From a virus: a stretch of 64,000 nucleotides of DNA. Each line of letters starts with the position of its first letter. The stretch's first letter is position 1. Below the pieces are notes generated by a model. It made no database searches and was not told where the DNA came from. It saw only the letters and a program-made list of their open reading frames with translations. Shown here piece after piece: positions 16,701-62,161 of this stretch. The position numbers and the translations under genes are program-made. Location of the stretch: the IMG/VR virus record IMGVR_UViG_3300044695_003432, positions 21,133 to 85,132 of that record; one strand, given 5' to 3'.

Positions 16701-18263
16701 TCAGGCTTGGGGTGCGGCTTGCTGCTGCGCAATGCCACCAGCGGCGCGTGCCGCTTCCTGAATGACTGCCGTTGCCCCGTCCGCCTTCACTTGGTCCGCC
16801 ATCGCTTTGCGAGCCTCTTGCTCCAACTGCGCTGGCGTCTTGATAAGCCCAGGCTCGGCCACCCCCAATGAACGAGCCGCGAGACTGAGAAGCACGTTCT
16901 GATCCAACTGCTTGACCGCCTGCTCGCCCATCGCACCCGCGAGTTGTGCCAACTGCATCGCACCCTCGGCGCGACGCTTCTGGTTGATCGCGGCGATACC
17001 CGTGGTCGATACCACGTCGGCGAACTTCATCTTCTTGGCGTCGAGCAACCCGCTCCGCGTGCCCATGTCGATCGCGGCCCACAGGAGCGGCTTCTGCTGC
17101 TGGTCGTGGATGGTCGAGAACAGGTCGCCAAGCCAACCCTGCAACTGCTCGGCGGTCTGCTTCCATGCCGTGCTGTGACGGCCAGCCTCGCCCTTGGGAG
17201 CGGCGTCGGCGTCAAGGAGCATGGTCTTGGATAGGTCGTCTTGGCACCGCATCCAAACCTGCTGAACAACTTGGAAGTCGGCAAGTTTCTCGACGCCGAG
17301 CATGGCAACGTCTTGCAAGCGACCGCCCTCGACGCGGCCACCGACGATGATCTTGCCCGACTCGATAGCCAAGTCCTCGGGACGGAGCGTGCTGCCGGTG
17401 CCGATGACGGGGTTGAACTTGCTGGCGTGTTCCGCCCAATCCTTCATGCGACCGGCGAAGAACTCGTTGGACTCGAAATCGCCGCCGTGCAGTTCAATCA
17501 GGCCGCGCCCGTAGTGGTCGTTGCCCGCCCGCTTGAAGTCGGTTTGGAAGATGCGGGCCGTTTCGTGCTGAGCCTCGAACACCTGCTTGTCTTGGATTTC
17601 CTGCGTCAGCACCCACGAGTCGTCAGACTGACGCTTGTAGAGCGTGAATACGTCAACGTCCTCGCCTTCCTTGACCTCGATTTGGGCCTGAATGTCAGCG
17701 GGCAGGCGTGCGGGGTTGACGCATTCCTTGATGACGTGGTAGTCAACCTCGCCGTAGGCGTCGCGGCGGGTGCGGTACTGGTCGCGGGAGAACACGCGCT
17801 TGGCGAAGTCCTCATTCCCGCGAAGGCCGATGCCCTCAAGCGTGCTGCCGGTGATAAGCAACTGCGTGAGCGAAATACCTGTCTGGGCGTAGAAGCCGGG
17901 AACGACTTTCCGCTTGCTCTTGACGTGGCTGCTCTCGATCGCCGCCTGAATCTTCACGCCCTCGACGTACAGGGCGTTGACGATAACCGTGTATTCCTCG
18001 GGGCTGATGGAATACTTGCTCTCAGGCTCCACGTCCAACTCGAACCAGCCGTCGCCGGGGAACAGGACGGAGCGGAGTTTGCCGACGCAGTTGGCGATGC
18101 CACGGGCGGCAAGCGAGTTGTTGGGGTTGCGGAGCCGGTCGCCAGCCTGATAGCCCTGCTCCGGCATCACGAACGGCATGGAAATCGACGCCGCCCAACG
18201 CGCCCGATCCAAGACCTCCGACGCATCGCCGGTGCCTTGGTCGAACAGTTTTTGGATGCTCAT
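16701..18263 (-). CDS. Portal / head-tail connector (T7 gp8-like)
   Basis: 520 aa; ARGIANCVGKL, RRDAYG, HYGRG, ADFQVV motifs. Confidence 0.9.
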   Translation of the reverse strand: MSIQKLFDQGTGDASEVLDRARWAASISMPFVMPEQGYQAGDRLRNPNNSLAARGIANCVGKLRSVLFPGDGWFELDVEPESKYSISPEEYTVIVNALYVEGVKIQAAIESSHVKSKRKVVPGFYAQTGISLTQLLITGSTLEGIGLRGNEDFAKRVFSRDQYRTRRDAYGEVDYHVIKECVNPARLPADIQAQIEVKEGEDVDVFTLYKRQSDDSWVLTQEIQDKQVFEAQHETARIFQTDFKRAGNDHYGRGLIELHGGDFESNEFFAGRMKDWAEHASKFNPVIGTGSTLRPEDLAIESGKIIVGGRVEGGRLQDVAMLGVEKLADFQVVQQVWMRCQDDLSKTMLLDADAAPKGEAGRHSTAWKQTAEQLQGWLGDLFSTIHDQQQKPLLWAAIDMGTRSGLLDAKKMKFADVVSTTGIAAINQKRRAEGAMQLAQLAGAMGEQAVKQLDQNVLLSLAARSLGVAEPGLIKTPAQLEQEARKAMADQVKADGATAVIQEAARAAGGIAQQQAAPQA

Positions 18264-19144: not shown

Positions 19145-21544
19145 CTAGCACATTGCATAAGCGGCGTTTATGACGCTGCTTGGGTCATAGTCGCCGTTGA
19201 TGGGCGGTGCTGGCAACTCAATGTCAGGGTGCTGCTCGCGCCACTGGAACCACAAGTCCGTAAGCAGCGGCGTCTGGTGGATCGCCGCGAACTGCTCGCG
19301 TGCGATCAACCCGACTTCCTCGGCAGTCTCCGCGTGTGACCAGAACGAGTCATGCACGGCAAGGAACGAAATGCCCTGGTTGCGGCAAGTGATCGCCGCC
19401 TTCATCATCGCGGCAGCATCGACGCCATGCACGAAGTTGGGAGCCGAGCCGGACACCTGCTTGCGGGCGTTGACAGACCGCTCATTGTCCATTTGCATCC
19501 AAAGAACGCCAAAGCACGTTTCAACTTGCACTGCGTTCTTTGCGTAGTACGGCTGCACGCACCGCCAGCCGATCGGCGTCCGCCACATCACCGGGCGGTT
19601 GGACTCTGCGATCTGACCGGCGCACGTCCGCACCCAATCCATCGCCGCCGTCACAAGCGGGAACACCTCACGCACCGACTTCAACACCGACTTCGCCAGA
19701 ATCGACGCGGCCTCCTTCGCGTGTTCGCTCTCTAGCCCGAGCTTCTTGAACTTGCCCATGATCTGATCGCGTGCCCCGTACTCCGTCACGCCGTAGGGCG
19801 TCGTCATCACGGGCTGCTTGCACACTTCTTTGCCGTACTTCCTGACCGCGTGCAGGGCCATTGCCACAGCCTCGGGCGTGCCCTCCCCGTCTCCCGCCAA
19901 GTACGTCAGCACCCGCTTGGCAATCTCGGCGTACAGCGCACTCGGCTTGTCGTTCTCGACCAAGTTCACGAACGGTGCCGCCGTCGCGTCTCGCGTCATG
20001 GCAACGAAGTGCTGGAACCCGCTCGCCGTCGCGTCCCGCTGGATGGGCAGGTGTACCGCGTGGTCACGCGACTGCAACGCCTTGCACGCGGCGAGGAACT
20101 GCAACGGGTTCTCGGCCTGCCGCCAGAAGTCGGTGTTGAACGGGTCGCGGGCGGACATGAACACGTCCCGCATGTTGGACTTCACCCATTCAACCCGGTC
20201 GTCGAATGAAATCTTGTCGTGGCCGTACATCGTCGCGGCCTGGATTGCCACCTGCCGCATCACCCCGTCGCCGTCGCGGGCCTCGGCGAACTGGAACAGC
20301 GACCGCTCCATGTCCCCGCCGTAGTGGTTGAAGTAGTGGGGGCGTGCGTACATCCGGCCCCGGAAGTCGCCCTGGTGCGGGACGTAGAAGCGCGGCTCGT
20401 TCTCGAACTCGCGGGCGACCTGCCGACACTGGAACGCGGCATAGAACGCGGACTCGTTCTTGATGTTCTTGCGGTGAATCTCGACACATTCACCGCGCCA
20501 CTTGCGGAGAATGTCCGCGTCCTCGGTCTGCGGCTTGGGCGGGTTGTTGAACGCCGTGGACGCGGGCAACCCTGCCACGTCGCCGCCTTCCTCGATGAGC
20601 CGGTCAATCACGCCCAGCATCCAACCGTTCACCTTGAGCGGGGTGTTGCCCAACGCCTCCATGCCGTCGATGAACTCGCCCAACTCCCCGATGCCGTCGC
20701 GGATCAACTGCCGCTGCGCCTTCGTGGACTTCGTGAGCATCCCCATGCGGATCGTGACGTAACTACCGTGGGTGCTGTCCGCGTGCTTGTACGGGGGAAT
20801 CACCATCGGCGGGTAGACCGGCGAGACTGCCGCCAACGCCTGATGGTCGTGCATGATCGTCGCACGAATCTTCGGGTCGATGGTGAACATCGAACGCATC
20901 TTCTTCCCGGTGCCGACGTTCTTGCGGTGGAAAGCCAGCGCAAAGGGCTGCGATTCATCGTTGCAAGAGCAAGCCCCGACAGCATCCCACACGAACGCCG
21001 CCCCGACCTTGACGCACAGAACGCTGTCGTAGATCGCCTCGGGGTCCAGAATCTTGGCGTACCGATTCACGTCCATCGCGGCAATCGCGTTCTTTCGCCG
21101 CTTCTTGAACATGGCTTTGAGAAGGTCTTTCTTCTTCTCCTTCTGCCAGCGGTCGAGTTGGGCCTGCGCCAGAATCGCACGGCCAACCGCGATGTAGAGT
21201 TTCTGCTGCGTCACACCTTCGGGTTCGCGGAGCAGGCAGTTGAGCATCTGCGTCAGCGTGATCGCCGCCGCCTTGTTGGGCGACACCAGCGAGTAGATGC
21301 CGACGTACTCGGTGGGGGTTTTCTTGTTCTCGCCCACCAGTGATCGCCGCTTCTGGCGGATGGCGAGGGTCATCGCCACCGCCCAATGAGCGAGCCAGCG
21401 ACGGCCCGGCGCGGTGGATGCGTAGCGGCCCTTGTCGTGGGCCTTGTCGCGGTCGCGGAAGTAGCGGAGTCGTCCTGCCTCCTGCGCCTTCTTCTCGATG
21501 AGTATTTGCCGGTCGAAGTCCGTTCCGTACAGCAATCCGCTCAT
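19145..21544 (-). CDS. Single-subunit T7-like RNA polymerase (phage B)
   Basis: DFRGRMY, DATASGFQH, KQPVMTTPYG, APNFVHGVDA and VHDSF motifs; 799 aa. Confidence 0.97.
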   Translation of the reverse strand: MSGLLYGTDFDRQILIEKKAQEAGRLRYFRDRDKAHDKGRYASTAPGRRWLAHWAVAMTLAIRQKRRSLVGENKKTPTEYVGIYSLVSPNKAAAITLTQMLNCLLREPEGVTQQKLYIAVGRAILAQAQLDRWQKEKKKDLLKAMFKKRRKNAIAAMDVNRYAKILDPEAIYDSVLCVKVGAAFVWDAVGACSCNDESQPFALAFHRKNVGTGKKMRSMFTIDPKIRATIMHDHQALAAVSPVYPPMVIPPYKHADSTHGSYVTIRMGMLTKSTKAQRQLIRDGIGELGEFIDGMEALGNTPLKVNGWMLGVIDRLIEEGGDVAGLPASTAFNNPPKPQTEDADILRKWRGECVEIHRKNIKNESAFYAAFQCRQVAREFENEPRFYVPHQGDFRGRMYARPHYFNHYGGDMERSLFQFAEARDGDGVMRQVAIQAATMYGHDKISFDDRVEWVKSNMRDVFMSARDPFNTDFWRQAENPLQFLAACKALQSRDHAVHLPIQRDATASGFQHFVAMTRDATAAPFVNLVENDKPSALYAEIAKRVLTYLAGDGEGTPEAVAMALHAVRKYGKEVCKQPVMTTPYGVTEYGARDQIMGKFKKLGLESEHAKEAASILAKSVLKSVREVFPLVTAAMDWVRTCAGQIAESNRPVMWRTPIGWRCVQPYYAKNAVQVETCFGVLWMQMDNERSVNARKQVSGSAPNFVHGVDAAAMMKAAITCRNQGISFLAVHDSFWSHAETAEEVGLIAREQFAAIHQTPLLTDLWFQWREQHPDIELPAPPINGDYDPSSVINAAYAMC

Positions 21545-21877
21545 TCAGCCTCCTTTGTCCAAAGCCTCCACCGCCGCCGCGAGTGCGAGGAAGCGGGTGT
21601 TTCCACCGACGCCATTCTCGTACTCCCAATAGGCACAGTCCCCTACCGCGTCGTCGCACAAGTTGATCGTTCCCAACCTCTCCACCATCGCCCACGCGAT
21701 CGCGGAGAGGGCGTGAAGCGGGTGGCACCATCCGTCAAACTCGGAACCGTCGTGCCAGTGTTCCGCGTCGAGTCCGTCGTGGTGGCGGCGTTGCACCGTC
21801 TTCGGCCACCACTCCGCGTCCTTGTACGTTTTGTACAACTCCACCGCCTTCGCGTGGTCTGCTTCGGTGAATGTCAT
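21545..21877 (-). CDS. Hypothetical protein
   Basis: MTFTEADH..., AAGGG RBS, ATGA overlap with upstream gene. Confidence 0.6.
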   Translation of the reverse strand: MTFTEADHAKAVELYKTYKDAEWWPKTVQRRHHDGLDAEHWHDGSEFDGWCHPLHALSAIAWAMVERLGTINLCDDAVGDCAYWEYENGVGGNTRFLALAAAVEALDKGG

Positions 21878-22128
21878 GGCTTCCCTTTCCGCTCGGTGCC
21901 GTTGAGGATGGCGAGGATGTCGCGCTTGTGGATGTACCAGCGGTCGGGTGCCGCCTGCTCGCACAGTTCCCTCACCCTGCGGAGTTTCTCGCGGTCGTTC
22001 GTCCACTCGCGGGTGAGGACGGTCACGATGTCGCGATCCGTGTCGCGATCGCCATTTGCGGGCTTCTTTTCGCCCCGAATCGCGTCACTTTGTCGCGATT
22101 TCTGTCGCGATTCACGCTTCTTCGCCAT
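21874..22128 (-). CDS. Hypothetical basic protein; its 3' part is duplicated at the window end
   Basis: MAKKRESRQK... with AAGGAGG RBS. Confidence 0.6.
   Translation of the reverse strand: MAKKRESRQKSRQSDAIRGEKKPANGDRDTDRDIVTVLTREWTNDREKLRRVRELCEQAAPDRWYIHKRDILAILNGTERKGKP
21887..22013. repeat. 127-bp exact direct repeat, copy 1 (copy 2 at 63874-64000)
   Basis: Base-by-base identity at offset 41,987; the 13 bp to the left match with 2 mismatches. Confidence 0.97.
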
Positions 22129-22330
22129 CGCTCGCCTCCTTGATCGTCTTCTCCACTTCCTGCCGAATGACGTACCCGAGTGCGGGCAGGTCCACGCCGA
22201 ACAGCCGACGATACTCACGGGCACGGTTGACGATGCGGTTGGCACACTCGTTGGCGGCGATCTGGTCGTCGGTCCAGCCGCCGAGGTAGAGCGTGAGCGA
22301 CTGCGTGTTTTGGTCAAGTGGAAGGGGCAT
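22112..22330 (-). CDS. Hypothetical protein
   Basis: MPLPLDQ...; same 16-nt AAGGAGGCGAGCGATG start region as the next gene. Confidence 0.6.
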   Translation of the reverse strand: MPLPLDQNTQSLTLYLGGWTDDQIAANECANRIVNRAREYRRLFGVDLPALGYVIRQEVEKTIKEASDGEEA

Positions 22331-22440
22331 CGCTCGCCTCCTTCTTCGAGTTGTCAAGTGCGGCTTGACTGCTGGGGGAACTATTCGATGTTGTCGAAAG
22401 GTTCACTTGCTTCTCCTTTTCCACTTTCCACCCCGAAACG

Positions 22441-22959
22441 CTAATTTGCGGGGCGTGATTTAGTGCTGGGTTGAATTTCGTCGGCGATGGTGATGCCCGC
22501 TTCGGCAAGAGCAGCGCGCCACGCATGATCGCGGGCATGGATCATCCGCATCTCGGCGTCGGTGAACAGGCCGGGCGTTTTCGCAACGGTCGGTGCCTTC
22601 ACCACCATCGCGGCGGGCTTGGGTGCGGGCTCAACTGCGGCGAGGCGGGATTCGAGGGCGGTGATGCGCTTCCATGCCTCGTGTAGCCGCTCGTGGGCGT
22701 GCGCGGCGTTGGCCCGTGCCTGCGCATCCACCACGGGAACAACGTCACGAAAACAAGATTTCTCGTCGTTCTTGTTTTCTTGCGGGGCGGGCTTAGGCAA
22801 CTCCGCTTTACCACCGTTCGCGGTAGGAAAATCTGGGGGCGTTTCCTTTACTAGCCGCGCGTTCCCAGACGCCTCTGCTGTCAAAACCGGCGATGTTGTC
22901 TTTTGCTGACACTCGGGCTTCTCCCCTTCGCCGGGGGTGATCGTGTTCTCGCTACTCAT
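22441..22959 (-). CDS. Hypothetical protein spanning the compositional boundary
   Basis: 172 aa ORF, ATGA overlap with upstream gene. Confidence 0.55.
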   Translation of the reverse strand: MSSENTITPGEGEKPECQQKTTSPVLTAEASGNARLVKETPPDFPTANGGKAELPKPAPQENKNDEKSCFRDVVPVVDAQARANAAHAHERLHEAWKRITALESRLAAVEPAPKPAAMVVKAPTVAKTPGLFTDAEMRMIHARDHAWRAALAEAGITIADEIQPSTKSRPAN

Positions 22960-23231
22960 GCTGCCACCGTCCTTTCCTTCCGAATCTTCTTCAGAATCTT
23001 CTTCACATCGCTCGCCGCGGTCTCGGGAACTTCCATCCCCATCCGCTCGGCGATCTCCCGGAGTACGGGATCGTTGACGAAAGCCCGATGGAGTTTACCC
23101 AGGGCTCTCTGCTCGATGGCGAAGGCATTGGCCTTTGTGCAGGGGGTTCCGCGGGCGGTGAGTATCTCGGCACACTCGCCGAGGGTGCGGATGCCGGAGT
23201 TACGCTCTTCTTTGGTGTAGCCGGTGCTCAT
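22956..23231 (-). CDS. Sigma-70 region 4-like HTH protein
   Basis: RTLGECAEIL...AFAIEQRALGKL resembles region 4.2 TLEEVG...IRQIEAKALRKL. Confidence 0.55.
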   Translation of the reverse strand: MSTGYTKEERNSGIRTLGECAEILTARGTPCTKANAFAIEQRALGKLHRAFVNDPVLREIAERMGMEVPETAASDVKKILKKIRKERTVAA

Positions 23232-23611
23232 GCCGCCACCCCCATTCCCATATCCTCGGCAAACTCCTCGGCTTCATCCTGCGGCCATTCCTGATTCGTG
23301 TATTCACGGGGAGCGAACGCGGCGAAGATCACATCCTCTTCGTTGATCCCCTCAAGGACCGCGGGCACGTCGATCGAGACCTCTTCGATCCCGGAATCTT
23401 CCCACTCGATTGCGTTCCGGAGGCGGAGGCAGGAGAAGAGGGACATGAGCCGGATGGGCTCCTCGTCGAGGGCATCGAGAGCCAGAGTCAGCCGGGAACC
23501 TACGGGGGCCGGTGTGAACAGAGCCCGGAGGTACTCACGGGATTCGCGGGCGATGCTCCGCGTCCATGCGTCGAGGACCAAGGTACGGTAAGACTTCTTC
23601 CGATCTGCCAT
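23228..23611 (-). CDS. Early hypothetical protein with acidic C-terminus
   Basis: 127 aa; preceded by a structured repeat and GGAG RBS. Confidence 0.65.
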   Translation of the reverse strand: MADRKKSYRTLVLDAWTRSIARESREYLRALFTPAPVGSRLTLALDALDEEPIRLMSLFSCLRLRNAIEWEDSGIEEVSIDVPAVLEGINEEDVIFAAFAPREYTNQEWPQDEAEEFAEDMGMGVAA

Positions 23612-23690
23612 GATGCAAAGACTCCAAAGGCCCCAGCGTCATTGCTAGGGGAAACGATCCGAGACCGGGTAGGGTGTCGGATCGGATGGA

Positions 23691-24545
23691 TCAGCGAACG
23701 GGGAACCCCTCGCCGCGGTCGAAGTACCGGACGACGGTTCCGGGGTCGGTGTGGCTTCCACCGGCGTACCGCATCGTTTTTCCGCCGGTCGGCCACCAGT
23801 CCGGGAAGCGGTGCGACTTGCTTTCAATGCCCGTGACGGTTCCGGAGCGGCTGTCAGACTTGTAGCGGACAGTCTGCTCTACCGGGCGGTCTTCGCGGCG
23901 GAGGTAGACCCCGACGCGGACAGTGCCGATCCCGGAAACCTCAGAGAACCAGTGCGCGGAGCAAGTGCTATTTGAGTAGTGCGGGGAGTGAGCCCAGAAG
24001 GTGACAGGGGCGATCGGCGTGCGTTCCGGGTTTCCCTTCTCTGATCGGGACTCCGGACAAATGCTAGTGCATCCGTCCCGGCGAATCTCCGCGGGGATCG
24101 GAGGAAGTGCCGCAACGATCCGGAGAAGATCGGACCAGGAGAGCCCGCCTTCTTTGTGCATCGAGAACGAATCGCCGTAGGTGAGCCAGGCGGCTTCGGT
24201 AGAGTGGTGCCCTAGCACCGTCACCAGCCGGGGCGGAAGGTCTTCGAGGGCGTGGCGGATGATGGCCTCAGTCTCGGCCTTCAGGATATCTTGTTCGGCC
24301 TTCTCGATTGCCTTTACCCAGATATCCGAAACGGGCACGGCGATTGGGTATTCTGACGTGAGATCGTTAGGGGCGAAATAGCCCTCGACGGTGGAGCCAC
24401 TGAGGAACCACTCCCCCTTTTTAGGTGGGCGGCTCTCCCCCGTTGGCCGTACTTTGGTAGCCGTTCCCGCTCGGGTCCGATCCTCTTCCGCGATTGGGTA
24501 AAGGCGGCTTCCGGGAAACTCCCACTTCATGTCTCTAAGCTGCAT
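23691..24545 (-). CDS. Early hypothetical protein
   Basis: 284 aa from MQLRDMK; ATG 7 nt after AAAGG of the repeat. Confidence 0.7.
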   Translation of the reverse strand: MQLRDMKWEFPGSRLYPIAEEDRTRAGTATKVRPTGESRPPKKGEWFLSGSTVEGYFAPNDLTSEYPIAVPVSDIWVKAIEKAEQDILKAETEAIIRHALEDLPPRLVTVLGHHSTEAAWLTYGDSFSMHKEGGLSWSDLLRIVAALPPIPAEIRRDGCTSICPESRSEKGNPERTPIAPVTFWAHSPHYSNSTCSAHWFSEVSGIGTVRVGVYLRREDRPVEQTVRYKSDSRSGTVTGIESKSHRFPDWWPTGGKTMRYAGGSHTDPGTVVRYFDRGEGFPVR

Positions 24546-24623
24546 GGCTTTACCTTTCAAAGGCTCCGGCGGTATTGCCGGAGGAATCGACCCGGAACCG
24601 TTTCGGGTGCCGGATCGGATACT

Positions 24624-24953
24624 TCAGACAGTGCAGGCGGGTCCGTAGGGCTTGCTAGAAAGTCCCTCTCGGACCAGGATGAGACGCGAACCCGTGAAGG
24701 GGATGCGATCTCCGTCGCGGGGATAGACCCACCATTCGCCCCGCGACTGAGAGACGTAGAACCCCAGAGCGAACTGGGCCGCGGCTTGATTCATGCGGAG
24801 CTTGGTTGTCGCGGTTTTCCAGCCGCCCGTATTCAGATCGATAAGGGAGGAGTCAAACGAAACCACATCGGTATTGTGATACCGAACGATCGTTCGCCCC
24901 CCCTCAGCGCGAATAGAGGTAGCTACGCCGGAGACTTTCAGAGTTTGGGCCAT
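24624..24953 (-). CDS. Early hypothetical protein
   Basis: MAQTLKV...YHNTDVV...LNTGGWKTATTKLRMNQ; repeat-associated RBS. Confidence 0.7.
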   Translation of the reverse strand: MAQTLKVSGVATSIRAEGGRTIVRYHNTDVVSFDSSLIDLNTGGWKTATTKLRMNQAAAQFALGFYVSQSRGEWWVYPRDGDRIPFTGSRLILVREGLSSKPYGPACTV

Positions 24954-25032
24954 TGCTTTCCCTTTCAAAGGCTCCGGCGGTATTGCCGGAGGAATCGACC
25001 CGCAAGCGGTTAGGCTAGCTGGTCGGATGCTT

Positions 25033-25167
25033 CTACTCCGCGTCTCTGCTGCCAGGCTCCTCGGGGAAGAGGGCATCGGCGGCGGATTGGAGGAAGAGGG
25101 GTAGGAGGGTGCAGAGGAGGAGGGAGAGGAGGACCAGGGAGAAGAGGAGGAGGGAGGCATAGAACAT
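25033..25167 (-). CDS. 44-aa hydrophobic membrane peptide (absent from ORF track)
   Basis: MFYASLLLFSLVLLSLLLCTLLPLFLQSAADALFPEEPGSRDAE; GAAAGGG RBS; lies between two repeat copies. Confidence 0.6.
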   Translation of the reverse strand: MFYASLLLFSLVLLSLLLCTLLPLFLQSAADALFPEEPGSRDAE

Positions 25168-25254
25168 CGGTTTCCCTTTCATCTACCGATGGCCTATTCC
25201 ATCGGTGAATCCGCCGATGAGACTTTCATCTAATCGGAAGGAAGGGGAGAGGAG

Positions 25255-25289
25255 AAAACCACCCAGGGCGGTTACCCGCGTCTGGGTGG
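25255..25289 (-). terminator. Intrinsic terminator in the early region
   Basis: Minus strand CCACCCAG-AC-GCGG-GTAA-CCGC-C-CTGGGTGG followed by TTTT. Confidence 0.6.
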
Positions 25290-25301
25290 CTGAAAGGGAA
25301 A

Positions 25302-25541
25302 CTAGTGGAGCTGTTCGGCGGAGTAGTGTACGCCGATCATCGAAGCGGATACGACGAGATCAAAGGCAAATGTACAGATGAGAGGGTCGGGACAGTCGAG
25401 ACGGAACCGGATTTCTTCTATGGCCTTTGCCTTTGAAGGGGCCCTGATACCATCGAACACCAGGGATACTTGCGGATCGCTCGGTCGGGGCTTGTCCTTT
25501 GGACCAGCGAAGTATGCGACGCGGACGGAATAGCTTTTCAT
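25302..25541 (-). CDS. Early hypothetical protein
   Basis: 79 aa MKSYSVRV...; repeat-associated RBS. Confidence 0.65.
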   Translation of the reverse strand: MKSYSVRVAYFAGPKDKPRPSDPQVSLVFDGIRAPSKAKAIEEIRFRLDCPDPLICTFAFDLVVSASMIGVHYSAEQLH

Positions 25542-25624
25542 CGGGTGCCCTTTCAAAGGCTCCGGCACAATCGCCGGAGGAATCGACCCGCAAGCGGTTA
25601 CGCTAGCGGATCGGGTTGATTGGT

Positions 25625-26200
25625 CTAGAACTCTTCACCCTCTTCGGTGTACCGTTCTTCGTCTTGGTCGAGATACTCCAGGATGCCTGCCTCGGAGATT
25701 CGGTACTCCAAGTCATCCTCACAGATTCGCATGATCCGATCGGCTGCCCAATCGAATCCTCGGGAAAGGGTTTCACCGGATCGGATGGCGTCTAGGACAG
25801 CTTCGATAACGTCATCATCGAAGCAGACGCCAGACAGGCCACAGATACCGGGAAACTTTCCATCCTTCAACTGGTCTGGAGTGTAACCCTTGGGACGGAG
25901 GCATTCCCAGAACCATTCTTCGACCTTCTCTCCGGTATCGGAGAGGGTATCAATCTCATCATCCCCCAAGAAGGATTGGCGGAGGCTACACCGATTCCCG
26001 CGATTGTACGGGCCGATGCTCCAATCGCTCAGGGTAACGCACAAGGCATCGGCGAGCTTCTTCAGAGAATCAATACACTCGGAGAGGGTGAAGTTATCGT
26101 CATCCCCGCCAATGTCCTCGGCGATATCGGCGATAACCCGATCCTGAGACTTTTCTGACAGCTCAGAGAATGAATACAGCTCGGTCTCTTGCGTTCTCAT
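25625..26200 (-). CDS. Highly acidic early protein
   Basis: 191 aa MRTQETELYSFSELSE...; about one quarter Asp/Glu. Confidence 0.7.
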   Translation of the reverse strand: MRTQETELYSFSELSEKSQDRVIADIAEDIGGDDDNFTLSECIDSLKKLADALCVTLSDWSIGPYNRGNRCSLRQSFLGDDEIDTLSDTGEKVEEWFWECLRPKGYTPDQLKDGKFPGICGLSGVCFDDDVIEAVLDAIRSGETLSRGFDWAADRIMRICEDDLEYRISEAGILEYLDQDEERYTEEGEEF

Positions 26201-26278
26201 CTTTGACCCTTTCAAAGGTTTCCTAGCGACATGCTAGGGAATCGATCCGGTAGCCTTTCAGCTACGGGATCGGGTGAA

Positions 26279-26479
26279 TCATTCGTAATCGTGCCAGTCT
26301 CGGACTTCCCCACGCGTCTGAAGTCTCCAGTTCATATCGGGCTCGGCATCGCGGTATGCCTGCAAAGTTTTCAGTAGATACGGAAGTCTATGGGGCAGAT
26401 CGGACTCGTGGACTGTCCAGCGAGAATCGACGGTGAACCAACCAGGGCCGGACGACACTAAACGGAAGTTATTCGGCAT
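26279..26479 (-). CDS. Early hypothetical protein
   Basis: 66 aa MPNNFRLV...; repeat-associated RBS. Confidence 0.6.
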   Translation of the reverse strand: MPNNFRLVSSGPGWFTVDSRWTVHESDLPHRLPYLLKTLQAYRDAEPDMNWRLQTRGEVRDWHDYE

Positions 26480-26555
26480 TGTGTTCCCTTTCAAAGGTCC
26501 GGCGGTATTGCCGGAGAATCGATCCAGCATCCTTTCGGATGCCGGATCGGATGGA

Positions 26556-26813
26556 TCATTCGTCGTCCTCTTCAAGCAGATACACAATCCCACAATGTTT
26601 GCATGTCGGCAGGGGATGCCCGATCGGAGGCACGATCCTAGGGGCGGGTTCATGTCGGCAGTTGTCGATATCGTACAGTTGATCCTTCAGCTCTTGGGCA
26701 TTGTTCTCGATCTCTTCGATCTCTTCCTGAGAGAATCGATATCTCAGGGATGCCCGATCCGAGAGGATGGATTCGATCTCTTCGATGCGTTCGGCGAGCT
26801 GTTCGCGTGTCAT
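26556..26813 (-). CDS. First early gene: acidic coiled coil with a Cys/His (CRH...CKHC) C-terminus
   Basis: 85 aa MTREQLAE...; CCTTTGAAAGG RBS. Confidence 0.6.
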   Translation of the reverse strand: MTREQLAERIEEIESILSDRASLRYRFSQEEIEEIENNAQELKDQLYDIDNCRHEPAPRIVPPIGHPLPTCKHCGIVYLLEEDDE

Positions 26814-26839
26814 GTGTTTCCCTTTCAAAGGAATGAGTG

Positions 26840-26871
26840 AAAACCCCGCACGCGGTTTCCCGCATGCAGGG
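26840..26871 (-). terminator. Terminator/attenuator-like hairpin in the early leader
   Basis: Minus strand CCCTGCATGCGG-GAAA-CCGCGTGCGGGG followed by TTTT. Confidence 0.5.
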
Positions 26872-26937
26872 CGTTTAGGTTTCGGTTTCACTTGTCAGAG
26901 AAGGGGATTCGGGCCGTTGCCCGTCTCCGATGAGTGA

Positions 26938-26966
26938 AGTATCGGCTATACGAGAAGGAAAGACAA
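26938..26966 (-). promoter_or_regulatory. Sigma-70-type early promoter
   Basis: TTGTCT-17 nt-GATACT (compare T7 A1 TTGACT/GATACT), upstream of the early gene array. Confidence 0.65.
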
Positions 26967-27072
26967 TCGGCTTGTTTGCGGATTCGGAAAGATTGTGTCT
27001 AAGGGGCTGAAAAACAGGGGCTTGCGTTTAGATGGTTTTCTGGTAGGATCGGGAGAGATTGGAGCGATACCG

Positions 27073-27207
27073 ATGGAATGGATGATTGAATGGGTGTTTG
27101 GGTATGGGCCGATTGTGTTTGCTGGGGTCGTGGTCGGCTGGTGGCTGAGAGACAGGGAAGAGAGACGAAAAGCCCCAGTCACGAAAACTGGGGCAAGGGT
27201 TGAATGA
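27073..27207 (+). CDS. Possible small membrane protein, the only plausible plus-strand gene
   Basis: GGAG at 27061; MEWMIEWVFGYGPIVFAGVVVGWWLRDREERRK... Confidence 0.4.
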   Translation: MEWMIEWVFGYGPIVFAGVVVGWWLRDREERRKAPVTKTGARVE

Positions 27208-27473
27208 TCGTTCAAGGAACAGAGGCACGATGCTCGATCGCTCCAGCGGATTGAAAGTCTGCAACGGGTGGCGTGATTCGCTGCACTATCGGCAGGGCTT
27301 GTGTCCGCACACGTGCCGATGCTCGCGGATGCGGTCGCTCGGGCGGGCTCGGGCAGGCTCGCGGCCCCACCCCCACGGGGGGAATCCGCCTGGCCCGCTA
27401 AACGATACCCTCTGAAAAGTTTCTGCTAGAAAAGCGGACCTAGGGATTTCTCCCCAGATCGCCTATAACGCCA

Positions 27474-27713
27474 TTAGACCGCATTAGAGCCATTCCTAGA
27501 CCGGGTGGACCCTTGGGTATCCCCAACCCCTAGAACGCCTCCTGAGCCATCTAATGCCCTCCCAGACCCATCCACACACGAGTTCATCTCCCCAACGGTT
27601 CCTATCCTTCTCAGAGCCTCTCTCGCAACCGTTTGAACCCCCTCGCATCCCATCCTAGCCACCCTCTGGAGGGCATCCTCGGCTATGAGCAGGCGGGATC
27701 GGTCATCCATCAC
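27474..27713 (-). CDS. Hypothetical protein
   Basis: 79 aa, GGAGG RBS, overlaps upstream stop. Confidence 0.45.
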   Translation of the reverse strand: MMDDRSRLLIAEDALQRVARMGCEGVQTVAREALRRIGTVGEMNSCVDGSGRALDGSGGVLGVGDTQGSTRSRNGSNAV

Positions 27714-27970
27714 TTCCTCCCTCTGCGTCTCGTCTGCGTCTTTCCTGCGTCCACCTCTGCGTCCACCTCTGCGTCCACCTCTGCGTCCACCTCTGCGTCC
27801 CCCTTCACAACCCCGTCCACCCCTCCCTCTCCATCTCCTCCTCCATCTCCGCCAACATCTCGTCCAGGTTCATCACCTCCACCCTTCACCTCCTCCCCCT
27901 TGGGGGGTTCAGCCTGAGCGACGTACATCTGCTTGATCGAGTCCCAATAGTTGATTAGCGAGTGATCCAT
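27710..27970 (-). CDS. Low-complexity hypothetical protein with (DAEV)4 repeat
   Basis: Start MDHSLINYW overlaps the terminase end; start uncertain. Confidence 0.45.
   Translation of the reverse strand: MDHSLINYWDSIKQMYVAQAEPPKGEEVKGGGDEPGRDVGGDGGGDGEGGVDGVVKGDAEVDAEVDAEVDAEVDAGKTQTRRRGRK
27745..27800. repeat. 12-bp tandem repeat (CTGCGTCCACCT) x4 plus a partial copy
   Basis: Read directly; encodes DAEV repeats on the minus strand. Confidence 0.9.
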
Positions 27971-29646
27971 GAGTGGTGCTTTCTGGGCTCCTTGGCCCCT
28001 ACCTGAAACTTGAGGAACTTGTCCATCTCCATCTTCCACACCCGATCCTTTGCTCGGGCGTTCTCCTCCTCGGTCTTCTGACTCATCACCTCGGTCCAGG
28101 ATTGAACCGCGATGGCGACGGCTTCAAGCCGGTCATCGTGAGCCAGACACCCTGCCATCTTGCGGATGTGGGTGAGCTGGTAGAAGAGCTGGTAGGTCTT
28201 AGCGACCTCTGAGGGGTAGCTGGCGGTGGACTTGTAATCCCGCTCGATGAGAGCGGCGTTGACGATCATCTTGTGAGACTCGATGATCGGACCAAGGGTG
28301 TCGATCATGCGGGCCTCTTTGTTGCCCTTGGACCAGGGAGCATCCTCTACGGAGCAGAGTTGATTCCCTCTGACTGCCGCTTGGAGCATCTTGGTGAACA
28401 TGCCTCCGCCGTAGTTAGGCTCGCAGAAGATCCGGTTCACCTTGTACCGCTTGGCGATGGAGGCAAGGCGGGTGAGGGTGGTGTCTGAGAAACCCTCAAG
28501 GAACCCCCCAGCATCGAGGAGGAACATCTGCCCATGCAGATACCCCACAACCCCGTATGCGGTCTCGTCCTTACCCCGGCCTGACGGATCTACTCCCATG
28601 TGAATCCCCACGAAGGGGAGCCTGAGAGCGTCCTTGAGAGCCACACCGCGGTACGGCCTGTCTCCCCTGAACCCCACCAGATTGACGTTCTTGATCTCCT
28701 GGTCTGGGTCGTTGTTCCAGGCCACCCGTTCCGGGATGTCCCCGGTGTCGAAGTCGTAGAAGCAGAGGTCTCTGTACCGGAAGGGGTACATCTCTGCATC
28801 CTGCATCTTCGGGTTCAGCATGAACTGAAGACCGAAGGTGGCACGGCCAATCGAGGACTCGATCTCCTGGAGCTTGGTCTCGGGGAAGCGGGTGGGCTCT
28901 GTAGGCTTGCCCTCTAGGGTGGGGTCTTTCTCCAAGTCCTTGAGCAGGTCTTCAGAGATGTCCCCATCCACCGCTTCGATGTCAGCCTTGCTGGGATACC
29001 GAGCGGTCCAGACGGTCTTCTTGTACCCTCGCTTCTCCAGCTCGGCGTACAGGGTCTCCTCGGTCTGGGGAGTACCGAGGTAGCAGATCCTCCCCGTCTC
29101 CGGCTTGGCGATCATCTCGAACTCTTTGACCTTCTCTGCGATCTTCTCTCGCATGAGGACGGTCTCTGAGTTCTCCGGGGTCTCGATGTCGTCGGGGATG
29201 ATGAGATCGGCACGGAAGCCGGTAATCATGCCCGTGATCGGACGGGAGTACACAGAGGGGAACTGGCCTGACTTCACACAACCGACATCGAAGGCAATGG
29301 CGGAGTCTCGCTGACCGGGGTTCGGTCGGAGAGGCTCCAGCACATCCATCCCCTGAATCAACATCCGGGAAAACTTGGAGAACTCATCCGCTCGGCGGGC
29401 ACCGCCTGAGCAGACGAGGATGTTCCACGAAGGGTTCCAGTACAGGAACCAAGGCACCGCACAGCCGGTGATGATCGACTTACCAATCCCGCGGGGGGCC
29501 TCGATGATCTGACGCTCGGGACCGTGTTGGATCTTGTGAGCGATCGAGTACTGGAGGGGGGTGGGGGAAGGGAGACCGAGATGCTTGAAGGCGAGGTAGA
29601 GGAAGTTCCGAAAGTCCCGCAGGGCGGGGTCGGGGGTGTAGTTCAT
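27955..29646 (-). CDS. Terminase large subunit (T7 gp19-like)
   Basis: APRGIGKS Walker A, RADLIIPDDIE, LGTPQ, VDPSGRGKDET, HDDRLEA. Confidence 0.97.
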   Translation of the reverse strand: MNYTPDPALRDFRNFLYLAFKHLGLPSPTPLQYSIAHKIQHGPERQIIEAPRGIGKSIITGCAVPWFLYWNPSWNILVCSGGARRADEFSKFSRMLIQGMDVLEPLRPNPGQRDSAIAFDVGCVKSGQFPSVYSRPITGMITGFRADLIIPDDIETPENSETVLMREKIAEKVKEFEMIAKPETGRICYLGTPQTEETLYAELEKRGYKKTVWTARYPSKADIEAVDGDISEDLLKDLEKDPTLEGKPTEPTRFPETKLQEIESSIGRATFGLQFMLNPKMQDAEMYPFRYRDLCFYDFDTGDIPERVAWNNDPDQEIKNVNLVGFRGDRPYRGVALKDALRLPFVGIHMGVDPSGRGKDETAYGVVGYLHGQMFLLDAGGFLEGFSDTTLTRLASIAKRYKVNRIFCEPNYGGGMFTKMLQAAVRGNQLCSVEDAPWSKGNKEARMIDTLGPIIESHKMIVNAALIERDYKSTASYPSEVAKTYQLFYQLTHIRKMAGCLAHDDRLEAVAIAVQSWTEVMSQKTEEENARAKDRVWKMEMDKFLKFQVGAKEPRKHHSWITR

Positions 29647-36036: not shown

Positions 36037-37790
36037 TGATCGGATTTCTTAGCGGGAGCGAGGGAGGGCGAGTCCGAGGAGGACGAGCCGGAGCGGGTGG
36101 CGTTGAAGGGGATCTCGGACTGAATCTGCTTGACGAACTCGGTGAGCTTGGACATGGCATCCTCGGGGAGGATCTTCTTGCCCCCGCGGGAGTTCATCTT
36201 GTAGGAGAACCACTTCTCAGACAGAGCGGCCTTGGCACGGACGATGCGGGCTCCGGTCTCACTGGAGGCGGAGGGCATACCAGGCATCGGGAAGGCGAAG
36301 GCGGCTGCTGCCGGATCGTTCTCGATGTATGCGGCGACGAGCTGCTGCTCGGCGACTCGGTACGCATCTTCGATCGTGGGGAACTTCTCGGCCTGCTCGG
36401 CACGGTCGATCCACTTCGAGGCCTCGTGCTCGGTGATGGCACCGTTCTTGGCGAGGTAGAAAACATACTCAGTGCTGAGGGGATCACGAGGATCGAGTTC
36501 CTCAGACATGATGTTCGAGCGGATCAGGGCGTTCGGGGCAGAGCCGATCTCACGATCGAGCTCGTTGACGCGATCCGTGAGTTCCTTCGCTGCCCCCATC
36601 TGGCGGAAGGCATCGAAGAAGCGGGCACGGGCTCCGGGGAGATCTCCGGTTTCCTTGACGTAGCCTTCGAGTTCGCCTCGAAGGTACTTGAGGGCCTCGG
36701 AGGAGGCTTGGCTATCGGCGGTGTGGATGTTCGAGGACAGCTTGTATCGCTCATTGAAGTAGCTCTCGAAGGCCCCCGGAGGGACGTTCTGGAGCATCTC
36801 CGGGGGGAGACGATGCGAGAGGGGATTCTCCCCCGCGGCGGTGTGGGCGTAGAGCGAGTCGCTAGCGGACTTGCCCCAAGTGTCTGCGGCTTGCTTGACC
36901 GCTTCGGACTGCTGCTTCATCTCTTGGAGGATGAGCGAGTTGACGCGGGTGGCGGTGTTGTAGCGGACTTCCTGAGCGGCGGCGGTGTTGCCGAGGGGAG
37001 CTCCGTCCTTGCCCTTGAGTTGAGAGAGGATGCGGGGGGCGAGGTTGGCGTCCTTGGCTTGGAGGGAGGCCTCTTCGATGGACTCGTAGAGGATCTTGTT
37101 GGCGATCGTGGGGTGCATGGTCCGAAGCATCTCGTCGAGATGGGTCTGGACCTCGGCCACGCCATCGGCTGAGTCGAACTTCGAGCCAGCGGTAAAGATG
37201 GAGGTGAGGTAGTCTCGGGCCTTCTCTTGGCGTTCCACCTGACGCTCTTGGGAGCGTTGGTTGGACCACTGGTTCAGAACCCGAGACTTCATCGAGTCGA
37301 GTTCGGGGACCGCAGCCTCGGCAGCGAATGGCGAGAGGTTCTGAGCGAAGCCGGAGAAGTGCTCATCCCAAAGAGAAGCCACCGCGTCGGGGTTGTCTTG
37401 GAACCGAGCGGGGTCTTCTTCGAGCTTCTTATCGAACCCGAGAGCGAGCTTGCGGGCCTCGGCCTTCGCCACCTCCTGCTCGGCCTGAGCCATCGACCAG
37501 GGGTTATCCGCCCAAGGGATCTCTCCAGCATCGACCGCCTTCTTGAAGGAGGCCATGTTGTCGAGACGCTTGGTGAGGACATCCTTGGTGGCTCGGAGTT
37601 CCGAGGCACGGCGGTAGGCGGAGAACTGGCGATCGAGGACGCCTTGGAGGCGGGGATTGAACTCGCGGAGAGACGCGGCAAGCTGAAGGGCCGGGTTGGC
37701 GGGGGCAGGGGCGGCGACATCGGCCTGCCGGAACTGATCCACAGGGCGGGCCTGCGGGTCAAGGGGGACGTACGAGTTCATCGAGGACAT
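36033..37790 (-). CDS. Internal virion protein, gp15-like
   Basis: PQARPVDQF...QLAASLREFNPRL N-terminus; synteny. Confidence 0.75.
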   Translation of the reverse strand: MSSMNSYVPLDPQARPVDQFRQADVAAPAPANPALQLAASLREFNPRLQGVLDRQFSAYRRASELRATKDVLTKRLDNMASFKKAVDAGEIPWADNPWSMAQAEQEVAKAEARKLALGFDKKLEEDPARFQDNPDAVASLWDEHFSGFAQNLSPFAAEAAVPELDSMKSRVLNQWSNQRSQERQVERQEKARDYLTSIFTAGSKFDSADGVAEVQTHLDEMLRTMHPTIANKILYESIEEASLQAKDANLAPRILSQLKGKDGAPLGNTAAAQEVRYNTATRVNSLILQEMKQQSEAVKQAADTWGKSASDSLYAHTAAGENPLSHRLPPEMLQNVPPGAFESYFNERYKLSSNIHTADSQASSEALKYLRGELEGYVKETGDLPGARARFFDAFRQMGAAKELTDRVNELDREIGSAPNALIRSNIMSEELDPRDPLSTEYVFYLAKNGAITEHEASKWIDRAEQAEKFPTIEDAYRVAEQQLVAAYIENDPAAAAFAFPMPGMPSASSETGARIVRAKAALSEKWFSYKMNSRGGKKILPEDAMSKLTEFVKQIQSEIPFNATRSGSSSSDSPSLAPAKKSDQ

Positions 37791-41800: not shown

Positions 41801-42076
41801 TTCACCCGAGCGGAACAGGAAGAGGTACTGCTCCGAGGCATCCCTTCGGATGAAGTGGACCATCGGATCGTTCGTGGCGTTCGCGTCCCCGGTGGTCTGG
41901 GAGGAGGTGAGGAGGCGAGCGATGTACTGAGACGATGGACGCTTACCCAATCCCTTGAGCGGGGAGAGGAAGGAGTTCTCCTGCGATGCAAACTGAGACG
42001 GGGCACGGAGCGGAGCGGTCTGCTGAGAGACGCCGCCGATGAGATTGGGGATAAGCCCCGAGACAGGTACAGGCAT
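38840..42076 (-). CDS. Tail nozzle / tail tubular protein B (gp12-like), enlarged
   Basis: IPNLIGGVSQQ, GLGKRP, FENRL, DSDPID, GRLQI motifs; 1078 aa. Confidence 0.9.
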   Translation of the reverse strand: MPVPVSGLIPNLIGGVSQQTAPLRAPSQFASQENSFLSPLKGLGKRPSSQYIARLLTSSQTTGDANATNDPMVHFIRRDASEQYLFLFRSGELKAFNLAGTSFPVIYDSGTAAYLACSTPRHDLRALTLADTTLLVNRSVTPALASVSSSTTPSCGTESVTLNFWNWYAGNIPEQRSATCYNCVRANVAFSGNVRFLQENVNDAPYLGTDLVEFIITGSTTWDAGNSRWEVTGTYRRTCTLPAAGQGDVRDPNDLSNTSPPSNWSYTSAKLLIAPGMKIIGVKVGSNTIDGSNTTTHRYHLTGHNTKSMLSVAAAHERLFIDQTLDFVTYYSGGWPGGSVLEGSPITAKPSVITGYVNTCSKYQLSWATDTFRQEALVDGRTVYRTNSRASVSVDLTASGIPDVLFCKRNVALFWIRQGGYGVRYRVQVDGKAVEYVTPTDDATKIQTSYIVSQLASLIAQQLNLGTYGVDYRPGDSVFRIARFDNAALTAEITDSVGNSYTRLAYNQVNSFADLPDTAEHGDVMTVKGSASSGQDDYYVRFEITPTPATDFVVGRGLWVEVDKPCITDSFDLASMPHVITRKVDNVSGTVTGIPNQIYFQISKGAWASRGAGDEITAPAPAFVGQKIQDLFLFENRLHFVSGSNASASVAGNFYDFWRGTALTVQDSDPIDFEAGTNSVLTLHAGSPFANRAMVFGDRSQLRLTVNGSYTAKTARFEIESEHDTYANCRPVNAERRLFAPYRSGSFTQIREFVIDPYNEIASSNPRTEHVATYLSGNPIQLCCVVPEKFLAVLCSGDRKKIWVHQWATEGDRTVLAGWHRWSPAPSGNGTNDDTIYGLGCIDSKLYMVIRRVTGTELEVFNLDIGYTDGTLAYPVLLDRRVSVTPAGGTYNAGGNYTTVTLPWDKPSVGTIVATPQPTFGTVGSIIAQQVGGSATELRLTGNWESKAVWVGLSYTQSSVFSPFYVRDPLPGGGSLADTNGRLQIHRLRINYSDAVGFSFLVTPSGGRPTATYALTDQLPNGNGSAPSTVSLTSGEFIAWVGGRNEETTATLLNDSMFPAWFSKASWEGNWSPDSRKT

Positions 42077-43800: not shown

Positions 43801-43969
43801 ATGCTGTAAACTCCAAGCAGGGACAATGAAGAAGTGGAAGAGAGACGAAGACCGGAGTAGTTGTCCTCAGCTTGTCCGCCGCAGCGGGGCATCGGGCTAG
43901 TGGTCGAAGAAACCGACTCCCGACCGTTGGGCCAGGAGTGGGGCCATTCTCGAAGGAATGGGGGAGTAG

Positions 43970-52035: not shown

Positions 52036-52381
52036 TCATAATCCTTTGGTAAAACTCCGCAAGCCGGAGCAGCTCCGCCAGGGTGGCATCACCCTTCAGT
52101 CGATTGGCTCTCGTCGAGACGACGACGACGTTTCCCCGGACGTAGCCCAGTACAGGCTCAATACGATCAAGAGAAGGAGAGCGGTCCCCATCCCCACGAG
52201 CCATCTCAAAGCCAAGTACGGGGCACGTCGGAGGAATGTCAAAGTCCTCTTCATACAGATCGAAAGGGACGCCAGCCTTGATCGCTCTCCGCTTGGCGTC
52301 CCTGAGCAGCTTTCGTTTCGGGTGTCTGTACTCATAACTAATGGGTCTCGGCCCAGTTCCTTCCGATCTTGAACTCACCAT
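52028..52381 (-). CDS. HNH-type endonuclease
   Basis: CPVLG...SPSLDRI...GYVRGNV..VS.RANRLK; start uncertain. Confidence 0.8.
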   Translation of the reverse strand: MVSSRSEGTGPRPISYEYRHPKRKLLRDAKRRAIKAGVPFDLYEEDFDIPPTCPVLGFEMARGDGDRSPSLDRIEPVLGYVRGNVVVVSTRANRLKGDATLAELLRLAEFYQRIMSG

Positions 52382-59079: not shown

Positions 59080-59105
59080 CGAGTCCTTTGCGTAATCGGA
59101 TGGAT

Positions 59106-61571: not shown

Positions 61572-61680
61572 TGATAAACAGTCTCCTTGGATGTATTTGA
61601 GAGGTAGTCCTAATGGACTACTCCTGCGTCTATAAACCAGAACTGTCTCTGAGTCTGTCTCTGCGTACTTCTACTCGTCC

Positions 61681-62146: not shown

Positions 62147-62161
62147 GAGGGTTTCAGGAGT

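Follow-up and report, generated by a model that had tools for sequence, protein, structure and literature searches.

The stretch of DNA analysed here, referred to as the window, is 64,000 nucleotides long and comprises bases 21133-85132 of an 85,132-bp IMG/VR record (IMGVR_UViG_3300044695_003432). On its minus strand, eight small open reading frames (ORFs; genes 1-8) follow one another, and the seven consecutive stop-to-ATG spaces among them, between 23609 and 26558, are each filled by an approximately 80-nt copy of what we call the two-hairpin element (copies A-G, counted from gene 1 to gene 8; Table 1). All copies lie in the orientation of the genes. Read 5' to 3' on the mRNA, the unit consists of a stop codon, approximately 5-10 nt, hairpin 1, the linker AUUC, hairpin 2, CCUUUGAAAGGG, 7 nt, and the AUG of the next gene. 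A repeated two-hairpin element in seven consecutive intergenic spaces had been proposed in an earlier interpretation made without database searches (hereafter, the sequence-only reading). Seven copies were indeed found, all of which fold alike, and the placement in intergenic spaces was right, with the correction that genes and elements are to be read on the minus strand.

Hairpin 1 has 13 bp (30 nt), with a conserved 8-bp base (CGAUCCG/CGGRUCG), a variable apex, and a GAAA, UAAC, or CUACCC loop; in five or six of the seven copies it contains a pyrimidine-pyrimidine mismatch at a fixed place. Hairpin 2 is shorter (6-8 bp, 5-6-nt loop, approximately 18-22 nt), and the two helices add up to 19-21 bp. 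Six copies have the linker AUUC, and copy G has UUUC. The folds leave the linker unpaired in copies A, B, C, F, and G, place it between helices in copy D, and put it within a multiloop in copy E. The box CCTTTGAAAGGG stands 7 nt from the ATG (8 nt in copy G). The copies have no more than the stop codon and approximately 5 nt in common before hairpin 1, with no conserved block of 17-20 nt. The main plan of a layout common to all seven spaces thus held, whereas copy G, with its degenerate box, and copy D, which is divergent and lies behind an intrinsic terminator, depart from it. Likewise, all stem sequences quoted in the sequence-only reading are present, but the minimum-energy fold of copy D pairs AGAU/GUCU instead of GATG/CATC.

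Table 1. Features of the two-hairpin array and of the two T7-like gene sets (positions in the window; z, folding z-score; bits, score with covariance model R1)
Feature	Position	Strand	Description
Genes 1-8	23228-26813	-	eight small ORFs of 85, 66, 191, 79, 44, 109, 284, and 127 aa
Gene 1	26556-26813	-	
Gene 8	23228-23611	-	
Copy A	26477-26558	-	gene 1 stop to gene 2 ATG; folding energy (dG) -38.7, z -5.49, 87.2 bits; hairpin 1 a perfect 13 bp with GAAA loop, hairpin 2 of 6 bp, CCUUUGAAAGGG
Copy B	26198-26281	-	gene 2 to gene 3; z -5.51, 75.3 bits; C.C mismatch in hairpin 1, hairpin 2 CCUAGC/GCUAGG
Copy C	25539-25627	-	gene 3 to gene 4; z -4.09, 91.7 bits; hairpin 1 apex AGCG-UAAC-CGCU, hairpin 2 CUCCGGC/GCCGGAG
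Copy D	25165-25245	-	before gene 5, divergent; z -2.66, 56.4 bits; hairpin 2 ACCGAUGG/CCAUCGGU
Copy E	24951-25035	-	gene 5 to gene 6; z -2.71, 91.9 bits; mosaic, 5' half resembling copy C and 3' half identical to copy F
Copy F	24543-24626	-	gene 6 to gene 7; z -3.43, 94.5 bits
Copy G	23609-23693	-	gene 7 to gene 8; z -3.64, 70.8 bits; linker UUUC, hairpin 2 CCCUAGC/GCUGGGG, box degenerate (CCTTTGGAG; CCUUUGGAG)
Gene 1 leader	26811-26873	-	partial copy without hairpin 2; z -5.70, 28.5 bits; 13-bp hairpin (26843-26872), UUUUCACUCAUUCC (..AUUCC), then the same box and spacing
Intrinsic-terminator-like hairpin with UUUU	25255-25289	-	between gene 4 and copy D; hairpin 25259-25289, U run 25255-25258 (from folding)
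Non-coding stretch upstream of the array	26814-27473	-	two terminator-like sites (terminator scan)
Phage A portal	16701-18263		
Phage A RNA polymerase (polymerase A)	19145-21544		
Phage A terminase and integrase			upstream of the window
Phage B terminase	27955-29646		
Phage B nozzle	38840-42076		
Phage B capsid	42757-43800		
Phage B portal	46732-48300		
Phage B DNA polymerase	52338-54191		
Phage B primase-helicase	54382-55986		
Phage B RNA polymerase (polymerase B)	59106-61571		
Phage B integrase	62162-63205		
MarR-like (winged-helix) protein	63209-63541		phage B

The two-hairpin fold is found in every copy, with z-scores from -2.66 to -5.51, and of 200 shuffled sequences for each of copies A to G, 0, 0, 0, 3, 3, 0, and 0, respectively, fold at least as well. 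The palindrome CCTTTGAAAGG occurs exactly six times, always on the minus strand, and nowhere else in the 85-kb record; with one mismatch allowed, it was counted 13 times on both strands against 0.93 expected, a number reached by none of 100 shuffles. A covariance model (R1), a tool suggested in the sequence-only reading, was built from our own structure of the seven copies. It scores the seven copies at 56.4-94.5 bits, the gene 1 leader coming next. The whole 85-kb record contains no eighth copy. One R1 match of 23.7 bits (36752-36841) was rejected as chance, since it lies inside a virion gene and its fold is unlike that of the element.

The claim that pairing is kept while sequence changes was borne out in an alignment of the copies, in which 87.4% of cells are paired compared with 71.7% in shuffles (none of 500 reaches the native value), 11 of 20 pairs have changed on both sides, and controls with slid partners pair in only 17.8-39.0% of cells; this alignment was fitted with the model and leans towards structure, and stem 2 of copy B and stem 1 of copy D are still misaligned in it. 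A search of the whole window with Rfam 15 gave no match at gathering score. At E ≤ 5, three chance-level matches were listed within 23500-27500, none of them on an element copy; Corio-PBP, which overlaps the gene 1 leader (26799-26853), reaches 23.1 bits against a gathering score of 63.5. The element is real, structured, and absent from Rfam, as its earlier description as a member of no named family had anticipated, and its strand-specific stop-to-start units agree with the proposal of a structured cis-element that makes each gene a cassette.

Both terminator-like hairpins that had been placed at 25255 and 26840 are present. The former lies in the space before gene 5, where the ribosome-site box of copy D can pair with the sequence directly past the gene 4 stop, forming a helix that encloses both the terminator and copy D (25160-25310; dG -67.7, z -7.11). 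Translation of gene 5, which encodes a 44-aa hydrophobic peptide, may thus be masked or coupled to that of gene 4.

Annotation of the window revealed two T7-like gene sets, assigned to phages A and B (Table 1). Self-comparison of the record showed that its bases 1-247 are 95.7% identical to window 22688-22940 and that window 21874-22013 is 98.6% identical to window 63861-64000. The 85-kb record joins two circularly permuted temperate T7-like phages via a common stretch of approximately 1 kb (21874-22940), either as a co-integrate or as a chimera of assembly. At 22946-22977, Logan contigs continue in alternative ways, and in a contig of one sequencing run (X2) the letters of window 63831-63860 are joined directly to those of window 21874 onward. 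In relatives of polymerase A, the upstream DNA is colinear with the record from 4833 down to 2405 and not with the array, and their likeness to the window ends near 22665. The frequency of GCGC per kb, which is 6.2 in phage A and 6.6 in the common stretch, drops at approximately 22940 to 0.4 in the array with its upstream spacer and is 0.08 in the core of phage B. Based on the colinearity of the relatives, the junction in the X2 contig, and the GCGC density, we assign the array to phage B, where it lies between the terminase and the integrase/RNA polymerase genes, and not upstream of the polymerase gene at 19145-21544.

Phage B is circularly permuted, and its minus-strand gene order wraps across the window end. 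It runs from terminase B through approximately 1 kb of largely non-coding DNA (two small ORFs, then 660 nt without an ORF) to the array and genes 9 and 10, wraps to 64000, and continues with small genes, the MarR-like protein, the integrase, 590 nt of non-coding DNA, and polymerase B. The sequence-only reading had called the array genes early; on this map the label follows solely from their position, and the nearest polymerase gene (19145-21544) belongs to the other phage.

Several further features of phage B were observed around this region. The 590-nt non-coding stretch (61572-62161, minus strand), which separates polymerase B from the integrase/MarR-like pair (62162-63541), likely serves this temperate T7-like phage as an attachment site or control region. 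Two differing arrays of 12-nt tandem repeats, of approximately 5-6 units each, lie in the two long non-coding stretches (27733-27816 and 61660-61739) and flank a 7-kb segment that includes the two-hairpin array, the common genes, and the genes for the MarR-like protein and the integrase; a tandem array of 12-nt units is also present in the related locus L119 (2321-2428). The exact 14-mer TTCGTCTCTCTTCC is found on the minus strand at 27156-27169, behind a terminator upstream of the array, and at 43836-43849, upstream of the capsid gene; with three mismatches allowed, it is no more frequent than expected by chance. Past the stop codon of polymerase B, the spacer (59078-59105, minus strand) opens with ATCCATCCGAT, an 11-mer that also opens copies A and G, and then goes directly into an AAAGGA ribosome site without hairpins, so that it could be a remnant or empty form of the two-hairpin element.

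The cargo of the array consists of ORFans with atypical GC content at third codon positions (GC3). In genes 1-4 and 6, GC3 is 0.60-0.66 compared with 0.74-0.82 in the integrase and seven phage B genes from polymerase to terminase; the MarR-like gene has 0.80. Gene 5 encodes a hydrophobic 44-aa peptide and gene 3 matches phrog_10310. Gene 6 (24624-24953, minus strand) matches Pfam Kyano_Gp96 (E = 1.8e-7) and phrog_554, and a small protein family of T4-like cyanophages therefore occurs in a T7-like phage. When the early proteins were compared by tblastn with all fetched loci, gene 10 alone was matched, and solely by its phage A copy.

A total of 272 fetched loci, comprising related contigs and contigs selected by pattern, were examined with R1, and a similar layout was found in one of them only, the distant T7-like contig L063, with weak scores. 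The element is absent from all 48 loci around polymerase A relatives (38 from IMG/VR and 10 from metagenomes), including L050, which is 92% identical and extends 8 kb upstream; because the array is not part of phage A, polymerase A is the wrong anchor for finding relatives. The closest relatives of polymerase B lie on contigs P0037 (94% identity, 3.6 kb) and P0038 (78% identity, 25 kb). For polymerase B, a single-protein scan found no relatives, and an alignment scan retrieved 80 IMG/VR loci, the nearest of which (L059, 77% identity) ends inside the polymerase gene, the others being at most 37% identical. A genome collection added 50 loci, all at most 35% identical over the full length, with a 251-residue fragment (L188) at 43%. 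In these 80 and 50 loci, R1 recognized L063 alone, twice (24.6 and 19.0 bits with default filters; 26.2 and 24.6 bits with filters off), all other matches scoring at most 15.8 bits, and gave no match in 14 further loci fetched with the L063 polymerase (28-44% identical). Searching IMG/VR for the pattern TCGATTC..CCTTTGAAAGG yielded six single, chance-like matches (R1 at most 19.2 bits), and the pattern CCTTTGAAAGGG..ATG at least 120 single matches, with R1 scores of at most 21.9 bits among the 80 loci listed. Phages of INPHARED/GenBank gave no DNA match, the best identity to polymerase A being 28%. The array region itself recurs with almost no letter changed in freshwater metagenomes (Logan contigs; 20 runs of 10 studies), and contigs of four DNA runs from four freshwater studies showed no variation inside the elements and no variant array, deletion, or cassette swap.

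L063 (IMGVR_UViG_3300005669_000022) is a 35-kb T7-like contig with a polymerase 33% identical to polymerase B. Its five intercistronic spacers before early ORFs each carry a hairpin of 12-14 pairs, AUUC (in four of five), a second hairpin, AAAGGG, a few nucleotides, and ATG; the R1 scores on this contig are 24.6-26.2 and 19 bits. The order of parts is the same as in the two-hairpin element; in contrast to it, the hairpin 1 analogues have a UUAAC-type loop, the box CACAAAGGGUAAG (CACAAAGGG) is not palindromic, and some spacers have a promoter-like lead-in. Three hairpin 1 analogues, in two of the five spacers and in the polymerase gene leader, start directly after the phage-promoter-like GCACTATTGAGGGAC. 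Repeated leader cassettes of other kinds were observed in the early region of two further T7-like loci: L086 (1300-3970) has six copies of a GC hairpin with GTTTGTCACTTTTCAACCAGGAGAC before ATG, and L119 (3150-4910) has four copies of a block with the T3-promoter-like TTAACCCTTCCACT followed by a conserved structure.

The folds also bear on the molecule in which the structure is formed. In the sense-strand helices there are six G.U pairs, which on the opposite strand would be six mismatches, and among the remaining non-paired oppositions we found no A.C in our own reading of the folds. A GAAA tetraloop caps hairpin 1 in three of the seven copies (A, B, and D). These features, the uniform orientation, and the placement from stop to start codon modestly favor a structure that sits in mRNA.

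The explanation that we prefer, tentatively and with slightly less than half of our confidence, is that the element acts as an RNA-level intercistronic punctuation cassette of the temperate T7-like freshwater phage B, combining processing, hairpin-capped stability, and a standard ribosome site. The eight small accessory or early genes would probably be transcribed as one or two polycistronic messages, which a host endoribonuclease most likely cuts at the spacers. Candidate enzymes are RNase E or a similar nuclease acting in the GA↓UUC linker (↓, cut) and RNase III acting on hairpin 1 or on the stacked hairpin pair of 19-21 bp. Hairpin 1 would then form the end of the upstream message and shield it from 3' exonucleases, and the downstream message would start with hairpin 2 right before the standard ribosome site. 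The repeats of approximately 75 nt may also, in a second role or as a by-product, supply homology for the gain, loss, or exchange of single-gene cassettes.

Processing and stability fit best because of the intercistronic position, the hairpins placed around an invariant single-stranded AUUC, and helix lengths that may suit RNase III. RNase E has the core motif RN↓WUU with a dominant U at +2 (PMC5222698), and the linker, read as CGA↓UUC, fits four of its five positions, including this key U. For Escherichia coli RNase III, the published description states that substrates typically span two helical turns, that coaxially stacked short helices can serve, that a 34-nt hairpin is a minimal substrate, and that single cuts leave protective 3' hairpins (PMC1540722). 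Compared with the 34-nt minimum and the typical two turns, hairpin 1 offers 13 bp (30 nt) and the hairpin pair 19-21 bp, with a single mismatch in five or six of the seven copies, and all seven copies lie between consecutive co-oriented ORFs.

A number of observations weigh against this explanation. The seven copies are paralogues within a single genome, and C, E, and F are visibly mosaic with one another; stepwise covariation can be mimicked when whole hairpins undergo gene conversion, and part of the apparent compensation may therefore be conversion of whole arms. Summed folding energies are equal for the two strands (sense -192.2, antisense -193.3 kcal/mol). Conservation of the 8-bp hairpin 1 base and of the 11-nt palindromic box extends to the sequence itself, beyond pairing, which would also suit a sequence-specific protein acting on DNA. 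The linker, with only 4 nt, is short for RNase E. A scan with the sigma-70 consensus only found no sigma-70-type promoter on either strand of 21000-28200, and no RNA run is listed among the sequencing runs holding the array region. The likeness of L063 is weak (19-26 bits), and a second search of its whole record gave no match at E ≤ 0.1. Finally, in partition-function calculations, 50, 45, 14, 20, 19, 15, and 3 of 100 shuffles, for the copies in order, leave the ribosome site at least as accessible as the native hairpins do. Because accessibility is predicted to be no better than with shuffled hairpins, a role as an insulator finds no support; nor does the translational switch offered in the sequence-only reading, as the hairpins exclude the ribosome site.

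If the hairpins mattered in DNA instead, the repeats would be recombination sites of a cassette system, either homology patches like the promoter-early stem-loops (PeSLs) of T4-type phages or single-stranded hairpins of the attC/REP/IS200 type. Such a system, which we regard as unlikely, would account for units composed of a promoterless ORF and a structured repeat, for ORFan cargo with atypical GC3, for the mosaic copies, for the strand-symmetric folding energies, and for a tyrosine recombinase located a few kb away on the circular map; the conserved base, variable paired apex, and fixed pyrimidine mismatch of hairpin 1 (in five or six copies) are also reminiscent of the design of attC sites. 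The six G.U pairs and the lack of A.C oppositions in our reading speak, however, for sense RNA, and the contigs of the four freshwater studies show a uniform array. An attC site is one hairpin of 57-141 nt with R''/R' cores RYYYAAC/GTTRRRY, whereas the element has two separate short hairpins (30 and approximately 18-22 nt) with the bases CGATCCG/CGGRTCG, at which we found no such cores on inspection. The phage B integrase is Xer-like: it reaches 49.4 bits with the integron-integrase model TIGR02249, far from the cut-off of 265, and is best matched by XerC/XerD models, also under their cut-offs. These features do not match an integron attC array, and a phage-borne integron- or REP-like cassette system, with hairpin 1 and ATTC read as single-stranded DNA by the Xer-like recombinase or a host enzyme, appears very unlikely. 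Were it true, a T7-like temperate phage would capture and reshuffle single promoterless host-takeover or anti-defense genes, each of which would automatically gain a standard ribosome site and RNA-stabilizing hairpins.

The conservation of sequence beyond pairing would be accommodated if the base of hairpin 1 (CGATCCG..CGGATCG) and/or the palindrome CCTTTGAAAGG are sites of a regulatory protein, serving as DNA operators or RNA hairpin operators. The binder would be a phage repressor or a translational repressor, e.g., the MarR-like protein, and would keep the array silent in the lysogen or at late stages of infection; the stoperators of phage L5 offer a comparison for such silencing operators. 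In addition to the conserved base, the half of the box that is not Shine-Dalgarno sequence is conserved as well, with six exact copies and none elsewhere in the 85 kb, and the phage is temperate and encodes an integrase as well as a winged-helix protein. The SAS/ESAS sites of mycobacteriophages share this geography, with a box that covers the ribosome site, 3-7 bp before the start codon, and an inverted repeat upstream (PMC3203893, PMC12699233). A double-stranded DNA operator, however, needs neither a paired, covarying apex of hairpin 1 nor hairpin 2, the L063 analogues (CACAAAGGG) lack the palindromic half of the box, and the binder is hypothetical. This possibility also seems unlikely. Control of transcription, by antiterminator RNAs of the put or nut type, attenuators, or promoters of a phage RNA polymerase, appears very unlikely. 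The twin-hairpin shape, the terminator-like hairpins before gene 1 and after gene 4, and the three L063 hairpin 1 analogues that directly follow the promoter-like GCACTATTGAGGGAC would suit it, but the scans found no sigma-70-type promoter-like site, no U tract follows either hairpin of the canonical copies, and there is no conserved 17-20-nt block upstream of hairpin 1. Moreover, GGRTCGATTC does not recur before middle or late genes of phage B, and a de novo search for 16-mers revealed no common promoter motif, only low-complexity coding repeats. An antiterminator resembling HK022 put RNA, one of the options in the sequence-only reading, finds no support: it requires one twin-hairpin directly downstream of each early promoter, whereas here seven tandem copies lie between genes and no promoter was found adjacent.

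The punctuation cassette that we prefer has several counterparts among known systems. The RNase III sites of T7 (R0.3-R1.3) are likewise structured hairpins in successive intercistronic spaces of the early or accessory operon of a podovirus, in a phage family that shares the single-subunit RNA polymerase. Each T7 site is one irregular hairpin of approximately two turns containing an internal loop, and the sites are not known to repeat one another in sequence. The element differs in its two short hairpins, invariant AUUC linker, fixed box, and membership of a repeated sequence family, and its cleavage is only predicted. After a single cut, T7 messages retain a protective 3' hairpin (PMC1540722). 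PeSLs of T4-type phages (PMC2839356, PMC4122927) are stem-loop cassettes proposed to mediate modular shuffling. They resemble the element as stop-to-start repeats of approximately 70-100 nt before small ORFans in a plastic region, with a stem-loop followed by a Shine-Dalgarno sequence and ATG; PeSLs are, however, defined by a strong sigma-70 promoter and a terminator stem-loop, whereas scans of the element found neither a promoter-like site nor a U tract. None of the hairpins of the seven copies was listed as terminator-like, AUUC or CCUUUG following them.

The SAS/ESAS system of Cluster K mycobacteriophages comprises SAS, an asymmetric 13-mer (GGGATAGGAGCCC) located 3-7 bp before the start codon, often with a variable-spacer inverted repeat just upstream (PMC3203893, PMC12699233). 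Shared with the element are a conserved box over the ribosome-binding site at a fixed few bases before ATG, the position upstream of non-structural genes of a temperate phage, and the single orientation. The box CCTTTGAAAGGG differs from SAS in sequence while being alike in position, and host group, phage family, and sequences are all different. In these sources, the ESAS authors favor a DNA-binding protein because departures in the 17-bp ESAS arms do not support RNA pairing; in contrast, the arms of the element covary, with compensatory departures. REP/BIME and Neisseria REP2-type repeats are short palindromic or ribosome-site-bearing intergenic units within operons and in this respect are similar. 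REP hairpins stabilize upstream mRNA, and REP/BIME units occur in many host-chromosome copies together with a RAYT transposase. They form host-chromosome families of tens to hundreds of copies, whereas the element is known from one phage only.

The class to which the element belongs, that is, repeated stop-to-start regulatory spacers before small phage genes, is already known from T7 sites, PeSLs, and SAS/ESAS. What appears to be new, on comparison with these systems and with Rfam, none of which it matches, is the sequence family with its layout of two hairpins plus box and its conserved pairing. Phages pack their fastest-evolving genes, which serve host takeover and anti-defense, into arrays of small ORFans, whose even expression and exchange are only partly understood. 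The element, a stop-to-start unit that is compact and self-contained and shows clear structural covariation, occurs in a temperate T7-like lineage of freshwater metagenomes (ten studies). If cutting and capping of the message by this unit were true, it would represent a new sequence family with the function that RNase III sites have in T7, and synthetic operons could use it as a natural part for gene insulation. If cassette exchange were also true, the idea developed for PeSLs would extend from T4-like to T7-like phages.

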